Positions 1,749-39,423 of a DNA stretch of 39,423 nt are shown piece after piece; positions within the stretch are counted from its first letter, which is position 1, and the number at the start of each line of letters is the position of its first letter. Source of the stretch: Escherichia coli (GTDB taxonomy: Bacteria > Pseudomonadota > Gammaproteobacteria > Enterobacterales > Enterobacteriaceae); assembly GCF_003334255.1 (NCBI RefSeq), contig NZ_QOWU01000054.1; one strand, 5' to 3'. The position numbers and the translations under genes are program-made. The notes under the pieces were generated by a model. That model made no database searches. It had not been told where the DNA came from and worked only from the letters and a program-made list of their open reading frames with translations.

Positions 1749-3267
1749 ATGTCAGTAGTTTCTGCAGATGGATGAGCAAACGGTCAATCGCTCGATAGCT
1801 AACTGCCTCCTGCAAATGCTGACGTGTGATAATGTCAGACTGATCAATATCAGCAATGGTTCGTGCAACTTTCAATAACCGCTGCCAGGCACGAATCGAT
1901 AACCCCAGATGGATCAGTGTTCCTTCCAACCACATCGCATCTTCGCTCTCAAGTTTGCAGAATTGGCGTATTTCCGGACTATCCAGCCAGGCATTCAGTT
2001 TATTCTGCCGCTTAAATTGGCGCTCTCTGGCGGCCATTACGCGTTGTTTAACGGTGGCGCTGCTTTCTCCCGGCACTACCGTTTTACTCAAAATGCCGGG
2101 GGGTGGTAATGGGATCTCCAGTGAGAGATCGAAGCGGTCGAGAAAGGGCCCCGAGAGCCGGTTGAGATAACGTAATGTCTGTTCTGGCGTGCAGCGGTTA
2201 TGGTTTCCCTGATAATGTCCGGTAGGGCTGGGATTCATCGCCGCAACAAGCTGGAAACGGGCTGGATAGGTTATTTTTGCTCGTGTGCGTGAAAGATGGA
2301 TCTGCCCGGATTCAATCGGCTCTCGCAAGGCATCCAGTGTACGCCGTTCAAATTCAGGTAGCTCATCAAGAAAAAGCACGCCGTTATGCGCCAGCGAAAT
2401 TTCACCGGGCCCTGGAATTGCGCCACCGCCTACCATCGCAGTTAACGATGCACTGTGATGAGGTGAGCGGAACGGGCGCTGCCGCCATTGTTTTTGTACT
2501 GATTCAGCATTTACCAGACTTAATATCGCAGCACTCTCCAGTGCCTCTTCATTGCTTAAATCTGGCAACAGGCCATTAATACGGCTGGCGAGCATTGTTT
2601 TACCTGTTCCCGGCGGCCCAATCAGTAAAAGGTTGTGCCCGCCAGCAGCGGTAATTTCCAGTCCTCGCTTTCCTTGTTCCTGACCGATAACATCACTGAG
2701 ATCATGTTGTAGCGCCCGGGATACTGCATCAGTTGGTTTCGGGCGTTCGAGAGCGTGCTTACCTTCCAGAAACGCACAGACAGCTTGCAGATGATCGGCT
2801 ATCAGGCATCCTTCACCGTTAATTAGCCCCACTTCATCTTCGTTATCTTTCGCGACGATAATTTTTCTGCCCGACTTAATAGCTTCAGTTGCACTGGAGA
2901 TTGCGCCGGGAACGCCACGCAGAGCGCCTGTAAGCGCCAGTTCTCCGACTAATTCATATTCATCTAACTTATTGGCTGTAAGCTGTTCTGAGGCCGCCAG
3001 CAACGCAATGGCGATAGGTAAATCATATCGTCCCCCTTCTTTTGGCAGATCAGCTGGAGCCAGGTTGATGGTGATTTTTTTCGCCGGATATTCATATCCG
3101 CTATTGATAATGGCGCTGCGCACGCGATCGCGAGCTTCTTTTACCGTTGTTTCTGGTAAGCCCACCATCGTTAAGCCGGGTAGACCTTTACTGATATGTA
3201 CCTCAACAGTGATCGGGGGCGCATTTACTCCCAGGGCTGCGCGGGTATGAACAATTGACAGTGACAT
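1747..3267 (-). CDS. comM: ComM/YifB Mg-chelatase-like AAA+ ATPase (506 aa from the second in-frame ATG)
   Basis: ORF track 516 aa; Walker A GPPGTGKT present; internal ATG (MSLSIVHTRA...) preferred because GGAGGG Shine-Dalgarno lies 4 nt upstream of it; first ATG at 3297 is an alternative. Confidence 0.85.
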   Translation of the reverse strand: MSLSIVHTRAALGVNAPPITVEVHISKGLPGLTMVGLPETTVKEARDRVRSAIINSGYEYPAKKITINLAPADLPKEGGRYDLPIAIALLAASEQLTANKLDEYELVGELALTGALRGVPGAISSATEAIKSGRKIIVAKDNEDEVGLINGEGCLIADHLQAVCAFLEGKHALERPKPTDAVSRALQHDLSDVIGQEQGKRGLEITAAGGHNLLLIGPPGTGKTMLASRINGLLPDLSNEEALESAAILSLVNAESVQKQWRQRPFRSPHHSASLTAMVGGGAIPGPGEISLAHNGVLFLDELPEFERRTLDALREPIESGQIHLSRTRAKITYPARFQLVAAMNPSPTGHYQGNHNRCTPEQTLRYLNRLSGPFLDRFDLSLEIPLPPPGILSKTVVPGESSATVKQRVMAARERQFKRQNKLNAWLDSPEIRQFCKLESEDAMWLEGTLIHLGLSIRAWQRLLKVARTIADIDQSDIITRQHLQEAVSYRAIDRLLIHLQKLLT

Positions 3268-3439: not shown

Positions 3440-3619
3440 AACAACATTCATACTGAAATTGAATTTTTTTCACTCACTATTTTATTTTTAAAAAACAACA
3501 ATTTATATTGAAATTATTAAACGCATCATAAAAATCGGCCAAAAAATATCTTGTACTATTTACAAAACCTATGGTAACTCTTTAGGCATTCCTTCGAACA
3601 AGATGCAAGAAAAGACAAA
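3440..3619 (+). promoter_or_regulatory. ilvLXGMEDA promoter/leader region: AT-rich upstream tract with candidate promoter hexamers TTGTAC (3551-3556) and TATGGT (3570-3575)
   Basis: Very AT-rich bendable sequence immediately upstream of the leader peptide ORF; the two hexamers are only 13 nt apart so exact promoter assignment is uncertain. Confidence 0.4.
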
Positions 3620-3703
3620 ATGACAGCCCTTCTACGAGTGATTAGCCTGGTGGTGATTATTATCCCACCGTGCGGGGCTGCACTTGGACGAGGAAAGGCT
3701 TAG
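3620..3703 (+). CDS. ilvL: ilv operon leader peptide, 27 aa MTALLRVISLVVIIIPPCGAALGRGKA, rich in Leu/Val/Ile regulatory codons
   Basis: Direct translation of atgacagcccttctacgagtgattagcctggtggtgattattatcccaccgtgcggggctgcacttggacgaggaaaggcttag; followed by attenuator hairpin. Confidence 0.85.
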   Translation: MTALLRVISLVVIIIPPCGAALGRGKA

Positions 3704-3726
3704 AGATCAAGCCTTAACGAACTAAG

Positions 3727-3759
3727 ACCCCCGCACCGAAAGGTCCGGGGGTTTTTTTT
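3727..3759 (+). terminator. ilv attenuator (Rho-independent terminator of the leader transcript)
   Basis: CCCCCGCACC-GAAA-GGTCCGGGGG stem-loop followed by T8. Confidence 0.8.
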
Positions 3760-3789
3760 GACCTTAAAAACATAACCGAGGAGCAGACA

Positions 3790-3840
3790 ATGAATAACAG
3801 CACAAAATTCTGTTTCTCAAGATTCAGGACGGGGAACTAA
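3790..3840 (+). CDS. ilvX: Small ORF, 16 aa [16 protein letters not shown], between attenuator and ilvG
   Basis: ATG preceded by GAGGAG Shine-Dalgarno; stop 2 nt before ilvG start; matches remembered ilvX small protein. Confidence 0.5.
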
Positions 3841-3842
3841 CT

Positions 3843-5489
3843 ATGAATGGCGCACAGTGGGTGGTACATGCGTTGCGGGCACAGGGTGTGAACACCGTTT
3901 TCGGTTATCCGGGTGGCGCAATTATGCCGGTTTACGATGCATTGTATGACGGCGGCGTGGAGCACTTGCTATGCCGACATGAGCAGGGTGCGGCAATGGC
4001 GGCTATCGGTTATGCTCGTGCTACCGGCAAAACTGGCGTATGTATCGCCACGTCTGGTCCGGGCGCAACCAACCTGATAACCGGGCTTGCGGACGCACTG
4101 TTAGATTCCATCCCTGTTGTTGCCATCACCGGTCAAGTGTCCGCACCGTTTATCGGCACTGACGCATTTCAGGAAGTGGATGTCCTGGGATTGTCGTTAG
4201 CCTGTACCAAGCACAGCTTTCTGGTGCAGTCGCTGGAAGAGTTGCCGCGCATCATGGCTGAAGCATTCGACGTTGCCTGCTCAGGTCGTCCTGGTCCGGT
4301 TCTGGTCGATATCCCAAAAGATATCCAGTTAGCCAGCGGTGACCTGGAACCGTGGTTCACCACCGTTGAAAACGAAGTGACTTTCCCACATGCCGAAGTT
4401 GAGCAAGCGCGCCAGATGCTGGCAAAAGCGCAAAAACCGATGCTGTACGTTGGCGGTGGCGTGGGTATGGCGCAGGCAGTTCCGGCTTTGCGTGAATTTC
4501 TCGCTGCCACAAAAATGCCTGCCACCTGTACGCTGAAAGGGCTGGGCGCAGTAGAAGCAGATTATCCGTACTATCTGGGCATGCTGGGGATGCACGGCAC
4601 CAAAGCGGCAAACTTCGCGGTGCAGGAGTGTGACCTGCTGATCGCCGTGGGCGCACGTTTTGATGACCGGGTGACCGGCAAACTGAACACCTTCGCGCCA
4701 CACGCCAGTGTTATCCATATGGATATCGACCCGGCAGAAATGAACAAGCTGCGTCAGGCACATGTGGCATTACAAGGTGATTTAAATGCTCTGTTACCAG
4801 CATTACAGCAGCCGTTAAATATCAATGACTGGCAGCAACACTGCGCGCAGCTGCGTGATGAACATTCCTGGCGTTACGACCATCCCGGTGACGCTATCTA
4901 CGCGCCGTTGTTGTTAAAACAACTGTCGGATCGTAAACCTGCGGATTGCGTCGTGACCACAGATGTGGGGCAGCACCAGATGTGGGCTGCGCAGCACATC
5001 GCCCACACTCGCCCGGAAAATTTCATCACCTCCAGCGGTTTAGGTACCATGGGTTTTGGTTTACCGGCGGCGGTTGGCGCACAAGTCGCGCGACCGAACG
5101 ATACCGTTGTCTGTATCTCCGGTGACGGCTCTTTCATGATGAATGTGCAAGAGCTGGGCACCGTAAAACGCAAGCAGTTACCGTTGAAAATCGTCTTACT
5201 CGATAACCAACGGTTAGGGATGGTTCGACAATGGCAGCAACTGTTTTTTCAGGAACGATACAGCGAAACCACCCTTACTGATAACCCCGATTTCCTCATG
5301 TTAGCCAGCGCCTTCGGCATCCATGGCCAACACATCACCCGGAAAGACCAGGTTGAAGCGGCACTCGACACCATGCTGAACAGTGATGGGCCATACCTGC
5401 TTCATGTCTCAATCGACGAACTTGAGAACGTCTGGCCGCTGGTGCCGCCTGGCGCCAGTAATTCAGAAATGTTGGAGAAATTATCATGA
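3843..5489 (+). CDS. ilvG: Acetolactate synthase II (AHAS II) large subunit, intact 548 aa
   Basis: ORF track 548 aa uninterrupted; thiamine-diphosphate enzyme motifs (e.g. [14 protein letters not shown]); first gene of the ilvGMEDA order. Confidence 0.95.
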
Positions 5490-18915: not shown

Positions 18916-19045
18916 AGTGTGGTAGAATATCAGCTTACTATTGCTTTACGAAAGCGTATCCGGTGAAATAAAGTCAACCTTTAGTTGGTTAATGTTACAC
19001 CAACAACGAAACCAACACGCCAGGCTTATTCCTGTGGAGTTATAT

Positions 19046-19375
19046 ATGAGCGATAAAATTATTCACCTGACTGACGACAGTTTTGACACGGATGTACTCA
19101 AAGCGGACGGGGCGATCCTCGTCGATTTCTGGGCAGAGTGGTGCGGTCCGTGCAAAATGATCGCCCCGATTCTGGATGAAATCGCTGACGAATATCAGGG
19201 CAAACTGACCGTTGCAAAACTGAACATCGATCAAAACCCTGGCACTGCGCCGAAATATGGCATCCGTGGTATCCCGACTCTGCTGCTGTTCAAAAACGGT
19301 GAAGTGGCGGCAACCAAAGTGGGTGCACTGTCTAAAGGTCAGTTGAAAGAGTTCCTCGACGCTAACCTGGCGTAA
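19046..19375 (+). CDS. trxA: Thioredoxin 1, 109 aa
   Basis: ORF track frame 18941..19375; start set at [41 protein letters not shown] (WCGPC active site). Confidence 0.95.
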
Positions 19376-36242: not shown

Positions 36243-37478
36243 ATGCTGCAACAGGTTCCAACGCGTGCTTTTCATGTGATGGCGAAACCGAGCGGTTCCG
36301 ATTGTAATCTGAACTGTGACTACTGTTTTTATCTCGAAAAACAATCCCTTTACCGCGAAAAGCCAGTCACGCATATGGACGATGACACGCTGGAAGCGTA
36401 TGTCCGTCACTATATCGCTGCCAGCGAACCGCAAAACGAAGTGGCTTTTACCTGGCAGGGCGGCGAACCAAGGCTACTCGGGCTGGCGTTTTACCGCCGT
36501 GCCGTAGCGCTACAGGCGAAATATGGTGCTGGCAGGAAGATAAGTAACAGCTTCCAGACTAACGGCGTGCTGCTGGATGACGAATGGTGCGCGTTTCTCG
36601 CGGAGCATCATTTTCTTGTTGGTTTATCGCTGGATGGCCCGCCTGAGATCCACAATCAATATCGCGTGACTAAAGGTGGCAGACCCACGCATAAGCTGGT
36701 GATGCGTGCCCTGACGCTCCTGCAAAAACATCATGTCGACTATAACGTGCTGGTCTGCGTTAATCGCACCAGCGCGCAGCAACCGTTGCAGGTATATGAT
36801 TTTTTGTGCGATGCGGGAGTCGAATTCATCCAGTTTATTCCGGTGGTCGAGCGCCTGGCTGATGAAACAACTGCCCGCGATGGACTTAAGTTACATGCGC
36901 CTGGTGATATTCAGGGTGAGCTAACGGAATGGTCGGTGCGCCCCGAGGAGTTCGGTGAGTTTCTGGTGGCGATATTCGACCACTGGATCAAACGCGACGT
37001 CGGCAAGATTTTCGTGATGAATATCGAATGGGCGTTTGCCAATTTTGTCGGTGCGCCGGGTGCGGTTTGCCATCATCAGCCAACCTGTGGGCGCTCGGTG
37101 ATTGTTGAGCACAACGGCGACGTTTACGCCTGTGATCACTATGTTTATCCGCAATATTGGCTGGGGAATATGCACCAGCAAACAATTGCAGAAATGATCG
37201 ATTCCCCGCAACAGCAGGCGTTTGGTGAAGATAAATTTAAGCAGTTACCGGCGCAGTGTCGCAGTTGTAACGTGTTAAAAGCGTGCTGGGGAGGCTGCCC
37301 GAAACACCGCTTCATGCTCGATGCCAGCGGCAAACCGGGACTGAATTATTTGTGTGCCGGGTATCAGCGTTATTTCCGCCATCTACCGCCATATCTTAAA
37401 GCAATGGCTGATTTGCTGGCGCACGGTCGCCCGGCCAGCGACATTATGCATGCGCATTTGCTGGTGGTGAGTAAGTAG
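36243..37478 (+). CDS. aslB: Anaerobic sulfatase-maturating enzyme homolog (radical SAM / SPASM), 411 aa
   Basis: ORF track frame 36213..37478; start at MLQQVPTRAF with AAGGAG Shine-Dalgarno; CX3CX2C radical-SAM motif (CNLNCDYC) and C-terminal Cys clusters. Confidence 0.9.
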   Translation: MLQQVPTRAFHVMAKPSGSDCNLNCDYCFYLEKQSLYREKPVTHMDDDTLEAYVRHYIAASEPQNEVAFTWQGGEPRLLGLAFYRRAVALQAKYGAGRKISNSFQTNGVLLDDEWCAFLAEHHFLVGLSLDGPPEIHNQYRVTKGGRPTHKLVMRALTLLQKHHVDYNVLVCVNRTSAQQPLQVYDFLCDAGVEFIQFIPVVERLADETTARDGLKLHAPGDIQGELTEWSVRPEEFGEFLVAIFDHWIKRDVGKIFVMNIEWAFANFVGAPGAVCHHQPTCGRSVIVEHNGDVYACDHYVYPQYWLGNMHQQTIAEMIDSPQQQAFGEDKFKQLPAQCRSCNVLKACWGGCPKHRFMLDASGKPGLNYLCAGYQRYFRHLPPYLKAMADLLAHGRPASDIMHAHLLVVSK

Positions 37479-37504
37479 AAATCGGCGGCCGCCTGCGGTT
37501 GATT

Positions 37505-37609
<105 letters not shown>

Positions 37610-37636
37610 AAGGCAGATCTCAGCGATAGCGCCGGC

Positions 37637-39292
37637 TTAGTCAGATTTAATCTGCGCGCGTGGTGGATATTTTTTCAGGATCTCCATATACGCGTGCATT
37701 TCGGTCTGTAGCGGTACACCCATCGGAATATGGCGCACGCCGATGGAGTCGCTTTCCTGCGGATCGGTGTAGAGGTTAAACACCGACGATCCCGCCGTTT
37801 GCATTACTGTGCCGGTGAATCCACCCTGATATCCGCTCTGGGTATAAGCGTAAGGTTGCTGAATCAGGACGTGATACTTGAACTCATCCATACGCACAGC
37901 AGCGAGTTTACCGTTGAGGAAGTAGTGCTCGGCCTTACGGTTAGACTGACCATTTGTTCCCAGGAAGAAGGATGTCTGGTCCACACCATCGATAAAGGTG
38001 GTTTTCGGCACTAAATTCGCCACTTTCGCTCCAGGATGCCCTGCCAGATCCAGCGCGGTAGGGAAGAGATCTGCCAGATCGACAATACCGTCAGATTTAC
38101 GCGGTTGGATCATCCCTTTCCAGTAAACGAAAGTCGGTACGCGAACGCCGCCTTCCCAGGTCGAACCTTTCGCACCACGGAACGGGGTGCGTCCGTGCGG
38201 CGGTACTTCGGCTTCCGGTCCGTTATCGGAGGTAAAGACGATCAGCGTGTTATCAAGCTGACCGTTTTTCTCCAGTGTTTTATACAGATTAGCGAACACA
38301 TCGTTCATCTCCACCATGCAGTCGCCATACGAGGTGCGTGCCGGAGAGCTACCCGCATATTTCGCATTTGGGTAGTTATCGAAGTGGCAGCCACGAGTGC
38401 CGTAGTAGAGGAAGAATGGTTTATCGCTCTTCGCCATCTTGTCGAGGAACTTAACGCCATAGTCCATCCAGCGTTGATCCAGATCTTCCATATATTTCGG
38501 CGTAATGTCGGCAATGGCCTGTTGTTCGCCGCCGCGCACCGCATGAACGTCATCTTTGCTGAACGGTAATTGCTTGATGTATTCAGAACGGTCCGGACTC
38601 AGGGCCACTTCCGGATTGACGTGAACGTCGCGCCATTCGGTGTACATATCAGACACCGAGTTAAAGCCACGGAAATCATCAAAGCCAACGTTCTGCGGCT
38701 GCGACTCTTTGTTTTCCCCCATATGCCATTTTCCGATGGCCTGAGTGACGTAGCCCTGATCGTGCAGCAACTGCGGCAGCGTGGTTAACCCTTGCAGCCC
38801 GCCCGGTTGCCCGTACATTGGCGGCATCAGAATGCCGTGGTGGATGGAGTATTGTCCGGTGAGAATGGTGGCGCGGGTTGGGGAAGAGCTTGGTTGAGAA
38901 TACGCCGAAGTTAAAATCAGCCCCTGGCTGGCAACGGCGTCGATATCTGGTGTAGGGTTACCCACCGCCACGCCGCCACCGTTAAAACCGACGTCCATCC
39001 AGCCCACATCGTCCAGCAAGAAAACAACCACATTCGGTTTCTTACCGGTTTTTTTCTCAAGTTCTGCCAGCTTCTGCTGGGTTTCTTTATCCTGCGCCGG
39101 ATGCTGCATTACTGGCATCATATTGTCGGCAATAGTGGTCGCCGGTTTAACCAGATACTGGTTTGGGTGATCGTATCCGGCAAAGCCTTTGCGTGCGGTG
39201 GCAGTTGACGGGGTATCTGCTGCGCTGGCCATGAGAGGAAGAGCGGCGGCGACAGCAACAACAAGACGTTTGGGTGAAAACGAAAATTCCAT
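37637..39292 (-). CDS. aslA: Arylsulfatase-family protein with N-terminal signal peptide, 551 aa
   Basis: ORF track 551 aa; signal peptide [25 protein letters not shown]; sulfatase signature [11 protein letters not shown] (S-x-P-x-R). Confidence 0.9.
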
Positions 39293-39344
39293 GCAAAATG
39301 CTCCGGTTTCATGTCATCAAAATGATGACGTAATTAAGCATTGA

Positions 39345-39423
39345 TAGGTGATGCTGCCAACTTACTGATTTAGTGTATGATGGTGTTTTTGAGGTGCTCC
39401 AGTGGCTTCTGTTTCTATCAGCT
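39345..39423 (+). mobile_element. IS1: Left end of insertion sequence IS1 (terminal inverted repeat and start of insA), truncated by the window edge
   Basis: GGTGATGCTGCCAACTTACTGATTTAGTGTATGATGGTGTTTTTGAGGTGCTCCAGTGGCTTCTGTTTCTATCAGCT matches the IS1 IRL-proximal sequence from memory. Confidence 0.8.
39400..39423 (+). CDS. insA: IS1 InsA N-terminus (partial, continues beyond window): V/M-A-S-V-S-I-S
   Basis: GTG GCT TCT GTT TCT ATC AGC reads MASVSIS, the remembered InsA N-terminus; only 8 codons are inside the window. Confidence 0.5.

Follow-up and report, generated by a model that had tools for sequence, protein, structure and literature searches.

What interrupts the DNA upstream of aslA at the end of this stretch, and what does the interruption mean for the gene? 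The window, by which we mean the whole analysed stretch of 39,423 nucleotides, stops shortly beyond the aslA start codon, in sequence that an earlier sequence-only reading took to be the left end of IS1, inserted here in this strain but not in K-12. Our comparison places the boundary exactly and sets it against other E. coli genomes, in which the same spacer has received IS1 many times. A known element with its expected behaviour has entered an often-hit region, and the junction is a routine strain difference, real but ordinary.

Results

The boundary between native DNA and IS1

The left inverted repeat of IS1 (GGTGATGCTGCC...) can be read directly in the window sequence from position 39347. 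In a direct comparison, identity to K-12 ends at ...GCATTGATA; from there the window continues with GGTGATGCTGCCAACTTACTGAT and K-12 with ATTGAGATCCC, which places the breakpoint between 39346 and 39347. We take GGTGATGCTGCCAACTTACTGAT to be the 23-bp left inverted repeat (IRL) of IS1, in line with established knowledge of the element; it also begins each complete IS1 copy in plus orientation that we mapped at the aslA spacer. Over its whole length the stub matches the first 77 nt of two complete 768-bp IS1 copies from other genomes without a mismatch (blastn of the stub in the window against the complete copies, E=2e-35), and the window contains no second IS1 segment. The sequence-only reading was therefore right to see IS1 at the window end, with 100% identity over 77 nt, but its start at 39345 lies two positions too early. 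Its other distances shift accordingly: the IS1 portion is 77 nt and not 79 bp, and 54 nt, not 52 bp, separate it from the start codon of aslA (39290-39292). The duplication that it had proposed, GCATTGATA, is exactly the 9 nt before the corrected boundary.

The annotation of other genomes agrees with this assignment. A 79-nt query taken from 39345 gave 100% matches to IS1-annotated features in thousands of E. coli records, and the matching records annotate the stub region as an IS1A/IS1B family transposase. The first codons of insA, which the earlier reading had also recognized, are GTG GCT TCT GTT TCT ATC AGC from window position 39402; this is IS1 nt 56 and matches the annotated transposase CDS start in one of the two complete copies (L003). 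The IRL and the insA start are on the side of aslA, and transcription of insA leads away from that gene. Our promoter scan of 39000-39423 found CTGCCA-16-TATGAT as the sole sigma-70-like site; the IS1 promoter has been described as extremely weak (PMC12428005). Over all 77 visible nucleotides, which take in the IRL, the promoter-like site within it and the first codons of insA, the stub is identical to complete copies of IS1, an element of K-12 (IS1A/IS1B-type) and other Enterobacteriaceae. Because the two reference copies differ from each other only at nt 253-766, the IS1 subtype is indistinguishable from these 77 nucleotides. A complete IS1 carries insA and insB', from which a programmed -1 frameshift gives the InsAB' transposase. 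IS1 has a length of 768 bp and makes target duplications of 8 or 9 bp (PMC12428005). The window ends at IS1 nt 77 and, as the earlier reading said, contains neither the rest of the element nor the duplicated target; the right inverted repeat (IRR) is likewise beyond its edge.

On the native side, the junction is flanked by the upstream region of aslA, which is on the minus strand, again in agreement with the earlier reading. The flank from 36645 to 39346 is 99.96% identical to K-12, with one SNP in 2,702 nt; this single difference in the aslB-aslA region is at 37158 in aslB (T against C). Table 1 collects the features at the junction together with those mapped in other genomes.

Table 1. Features at the window junction and IS1 insertions mapped at the same locus in other E. 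coli genomes. Signed positions are relative to the aslA ATG on the K-12 locus; L numbers designate loci.
Feature	Position	Strand	Remarks
IS1 left end, first 77 nt	39347..39423	+	100% identity to IS1 copies in L002 and L003; window edge cuts the element
IRL GGTGATGCTGCCAACTTACTGAT, 23 bp	39347..39369	+	read directly; contiguous with 54 further identical IS1 nt
Promoter-like site CTGCCA-16-TATGAT in IRL	39354..39381	+	directed into insA and away from aslA; equivalent of the weak IS1 promoter
insA start, 7 codons + 1 nt	39402..39423	+	GTG start, (M)ASVSIS, translation
Predicted target site GCATTGATA (9 bp) or CATTGATA (8 bp)	39338..39346	.	last native bases before IS1; duplication at the right end inferred
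Native aslA upstream DNA still joined to aslA, 54 nt	39293..39346	-	identical to K-12; GGAG Shine-Dalgarno 8 nt before ATG
aslA (arylsulfatase), intact, 551 aa	37637..39292	-	ORF; protein identical to K-12 AslA; matching genomes carry the aslA annotation
aslB (anaerobic sulfatase maturase), convergent with aslA	36243..37478	+	ORF end 37478; start deduced from the length of aslB (1,236 nt) as annotated in matching genomes
aslA 138-nt remnant	~locus 1502-1639 (1802-1939 in L004)		L004, L007, L008, L010, L017, L020, L021, L022, L024, L025
IS1 in aslA coding sequence	-20, -2
IS1	+9
IS1 at five loci	+19		L014, L016, L017, L023, L025; both orientations; variants 93-99.7% identical to reference
IS1	+33, +34, +43, +44, +46, +53
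IS1	+85, +86, +89		+85 in both orientations, target GGATGATTA
IS1	+132, +277, +286, +306, +356, +383, +384, +407

Distribution of the junction

K-12 and G1/2, the closest complete relative, both have an uninterrupted site that continues into ATTGAGATCCC, and in each the aslA ATG is 678 nt from the hemY stop. Alignment of the flanks thus gives the empty site ...GCATTGATA-ATTGAGATCCC without an IS, and the earlier reading was correct that K-12 carries no IS1 at aslA. In the great majority of 5,426 complete RefSeq E. coli genomes the flank match ends at 39346, and the exact junction was found in none of the 5,426. The exact 41-nt junction pattern likewise had no match in a species-representative genome collection or in JGI metagenome contigs. 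Within the collections searched, the insertion is, as had been proposed, strain-specific, and the junction is a unique marker for the isolate or its lineage. It is this chromosomal position, 54 nt upstream of aslA, that distinguishes the copy from known IS1 copies. The inverted repeat, the beginning of insA and the uninterrupted site in related genomes were all found here, as expected of IS1. Judging by titles, literature that brings up aslA together with IS1 consisted of gene or IS inventories, and the IS1 and aslB entries in a review of gallium evolution are unrelated mutations.

IS1 insertions elsewhere in the aslA-glmZ spacer

In about 60 of these 5,426 genomes (~1%), IS1 occupies the aslA-glmZ spacer in one orientation or the other. 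IS1 near the aslA 5' end in the orientation of the window was found in 23 genomes, and a chimeric query with inverted IS1 found the opposite orientation in 27 genomes at a query coverage of at least 80% and in 12 more at 75-80%. We fetched 26 representative IS1 copies and mapped every junction onto the K-12 locus (Table 1). They occupy 21 distinct positions between -20 and +407, and the +54 of the window is a 22nd. All 26 are 767-768 bp long and are followed by normal downstream genes or far-side sequence, and each has its own 8-10 bp target duplication save the first element of a tandem pair (L016).

The nearest neighbour is the insertion in strain E1 (NZ_CP195951.1), which has the same element in the same spacer at +53, 1 nt from the site in the window, with the duplication AGCATTGAT; there, aslA is present only as the 138-nt remnant. 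Since its orientation is opposite, the E1 insertion is an independent event. Three further strains share element, spacer and orientation with the window and differ from its +54 in the breakpoint: EP91B (NZ_CP149810.1) at +44, 2018-02-2CC (NZ_AP021896.1) at +43 and 20AR0300 (NZ_CP195498.1) at +46. As the breakpoints differ, the insertions in all four strains are independent of the one in the window. The AT-rich target here and the 8-9 bp duplications at neighbouring insertions in other strains are both as in classic IS1.

Several further observations were made at these loci. The insertions at +19 share an 8-bp target, CGGTTTCA, whose K-12 equivalent (L001 2660-2667) precedes the aslA ATG by 19 nt; among them is the tandem IS1 pair, in strain QEC11-421. 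Strain C9 has, besides its spacer IS1 and an aslA deletion, a second IS1 (L007 331-1096) with the duplication AACAATTG that interrupts aslB. At three loci (L006, L011 and L019, from about locus position 3054 onward) the gene past the spacer is annotated as hypothetical protein WP_001260226.1 and not as hemY, which suggests that the glmZ-hemY region differs by lineage in these genomes.

Discussion

A simple insertion and its main alternative

Based on these comparisons, we propose that an ordinary IS1 would have inserted by simple transposition into the AT-rich spacer, 54 nt upstream of the aslA start codon. The element would be of full length (768 bp), flanked by an 8-9 bp duplication of (G)CATTGATA, with glmZ and hemY on its far side. 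At the right junction we predict that IS1 ends in ...AAGTTGGAGTCATTACC or ...CATTGCC and that (G)CATTGATA-ATTGAGATCCCTCTCC comes next, the native sequence on the glmZ side being ATTGAGATCCC. A strain-specific, simple, full-length insertion, of which we infer the far end and the duplication, is in our judgement highly probable. It is by far the likeliest explanation because, in the population data, every IS1 sampled at the locus fits that pattern.

The alternative that survives best, though we consider it unlikely, is that the junction is one side of an IS1-mediated rearrangement, such as an adjacent deletion, an inversion between copies, or the boundary of a composite transposon or cointegrate, so that glmZ and hemY would not follow beyond IS1. 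No sequence past IS1 nt 77 is visible in the window, and a median of about 10 IS1-matching places per E. coli genome offers substrates for recombination; the sample itself includes one strain with a tandem pair and another with a second IS1 in aslB. The same sample nevertheless speaks against it, as the far side is normal in 26 of the 26 spacer copies and their duplications are intact with the single tandem exception already given. Furthermore, glmZ, a conserved sRNA gene, and hemY are present at every sampled locus. The hemY gene is part of the hemCDXY cluster.

Target preference and selection

If the preferred reading of a simple insertion holds, the choice of site most likely would follow from the preference of IS1 for AT-rich, nucleoid-protein-bound DNA in a spacer that tolerates insertions, and not from selection. 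Under a uniform expectation calculated from 58,795 chromosomal IS1 left ends in 5,426 genomes of ~5 Mb, a 430-bp zone should contain about 5 insertions; about 62 were observed, a roughly 12-fold excess that is crude in that it ignores clonal inheritance and the general intergenic excess of IS elements. The spacer from the aslA ATG to glmZ +1 measures 425 nt and has a GC content of 32.7%, with 25-36% in 100-nt windows. IS1 favours AT-rich targets, and its transposition involves H-NS. The latter involvement is described in a passage of PMC12428005 that cites Shiga et al. 2001, and Shimada et al. mark the aslA/glmZ spacer as HNS in their Genomic SELEX table (PMC3946193).

Selection acting on aslA could in principle add to such a preference. 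In 10 of the 26 sampled cases, however, the insertion sits in a genome where aslA is already cut to the 138-nt 5' remnant, so recurrent insertion needs no selection on aslA. Target preference together with neutrality is a more economical account of the recurrence than selection. It is very unlikely that the aslA-glmZ spacer is, taken as one proposal, an undescribed natural IS1 hotspot (at least 22 points, with the micro-sites CGGTTTCA at +19 and GGATGATTA at +85 reused in both orientations) whose recurrence is partly due to selection for rewiring or silencing a cryptic, H-NS-associated aslA, and in which the allele of the window makes a hybrid IRL promoter or relieves silencing.

The gene itself appears to be repeatedly lost or decaying across E. 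coli. The 138-nt remnant is annotated as partial arylsulfatase or as a hypothetical protein in many E. coli lineages; in addition, aslA of EP91B has an internal stop and that of strain N10 a frameshift.

For the strain, the insertion matters little beyond strain typing and explaining the assembly break at this position. For IS1, the junction is one more data point for a natural hotspot, and the spacer can serve as a convenient natural example of the preference of this element for AT-rich, H-NS-associated DNA. The recurrent hits also warn against calling any one insertion here adaptive.

Consequences for aslA

IS1 is classically polar in either orientation. If aslA transcription starts more than 54 nt upstream, a polar 768-bp IS1 would cut its promoter off, and expression would probably be lower. 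A search of the literature for an experimentally mapped aslA promoter yielded nothing usable, only motif predictions. One aslA-facing candidate comes from our promoter scan, TACACA-16-TAAAAT, a predicted motif 271 nt upstream of the ATG; the other, TTAACA-18-TGTAAT, was predicted for aslA in PMC3946193 and lies 356 nt upstream of the ATG. Both of these predicted aslA-facing motifs are beyond the insertion point, and no others were found. If either is real, the insertion would separate aslA from upstream control sequences, as the earlier reading had suggested might happen. aslA expression may fall, and some studies count aslA as a virulence factor.

The opposite effect would be expected of an adaptive regulatory insertion, one that relieves H-NS silencing of aslA or supplies a hybrid outward promoter and thereby turns on a cryptic arylsulfatase. 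We regard this as highly improbable. Outward from the IRL toward aslA, TTGGCA (5 of the 6 bases of the -35 consensus) is followed after a 17-nt spacer by TTAATT, about 30 nt before the ATG. IS1 can reportedly create hybrid promoters, as Prentki and colleagues are said to have described in 1986. Moreover, the spacer carries the H-NS flag mentioned above (PMC3946193), and activation of the H-NS-silenced bgl operon by IS elements is documented. Against these points, TTAATT matches only 3 of the 6 bases of the -10 consensus and is without the key A at position 2, and our scan found zero minus-strand promoter sites in 39000-39423. The insertions have both orientations and are spread over more than 400 nt, which points to a mutational target and not to a specific regulatory solution, and those in genomes with only an aslA remnant indicate that their recurrence requires no selection on the gene.

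The comparison with bgl illustrates the difference. In both cases an IS lies in an AT-rich, H-NS-associated regulatory spacer, and the gene or operon downstream is cryptic under laboratory conditions. The IS1 and IS5 insertions at bgl were, however, selected and shown to activate, whereas insertions in the aslA spacer also occur where aslA is already deleted. As for the outward hybrid IRL promoter taken on its own, TTGGCA-17-TTAATT failed the scan criteria, and we give its action on aslA an equally small chance.

Consequences for glmZ

GlmZ was located by Rfam at L001 3073-3279, on the strand opposite aslA and 370 nt past the insertion point; the internal promoter of IS1 points toward it. Transcription of glmZ in E. 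coli depends on one constitutive sigma-70 promoter, for which the region from -40 to +32 is enough; sequence upstream of -40 is dispensable, and GlrR is not bound (Göpel et al., PMC3045617). Given this short requirement and the distance of 370 nt, glmZ should be unaffected. A disturbance of GlrR/sigma-54 control of glmZ was also considered, and is rejected on account of the constitutive sigma-70 promoter, the absence of GlrR binding (PMC3045617) and this distance.

A separate motif is listed for glmZ in PMC3946193, TTGAGA-17-GATGAT (L001 2704-2732). It adjoins the insertion point and is ~340 nt from the experimental glmZ promoter (PMC3045617). The true glmZ promoter is probably not this motif, which would be no more than a sequence match within the SELEX peak.

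The window edges

The window is bounded by multicopy repeats at both ends, namely a 5S rRNA gene from its nt 4 onward (positions 1-115, followed by tRNA-Asp and tRNA-Trp) and IS1. It is probably an entire short-read contig that ends where the assembly graph enters a multicopy repeat. A value of 77 is a common maximum k-mer of short-read assemblers, and the length of the stub suggests that it is the k-mer overlap of the assembler. A contig that stops on entering the multicopy IS1 repeat would account for the junction alone being visible.

Least likely of all is an artefact of assembly, in the form of a chimeric contig end, or a minority variant in the sequenced culture: both ends do lie in multicopy repeats (5S rRNA and IS1), and the 77-nt stub is typical of a de Bruijn k-mer overlap and hence probably of a short-read draft, but the break falls exactly on the first IRL base, where a random chimera is not expected, the site is AT-rich and belongs to a zone proven to be hit by IS1, with the independent E1 insertion 1 nt away, and de Bruijn contigs require reads that span the junction.

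The wider window

From its beginning, the window contains 5S rRNA (from nt 4), aspT, trpT, the ilv, rep, rho and wec regions, four tRNA genes, aslB and aslA, and corresponds to the part of the E. coli chromosome between rrnC and aslA. The part from 14400 to 39346 is ~100% identical to many complete E. coli genomes, both commensal and clinical. A Shigella source, considered in view of the richness of Shigella genomes in IS1, is not supported, given this identity. The best match is G1/2, from a healthy human gut, with roughly 2 mismatches over 24.9 kb as estimated from the bit score.

The ORF at the ilvG position (3843-5489) is intact and encodes 548 aa. The K-12 ilvG allele carries a frameshift. 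Because ilvG is intact and the junction occurs in no K-12 genome, the strain of the window is not K-12, despite the identical AslA. Upstream of this ORF, at 3546-3823, Rfam gave a gathering-score match to RF02744 (Rev39 5'UTR), and a second match at gathering score, to RF02773 (TrxA 5'UTR thermometer), lies at 18976-19075.
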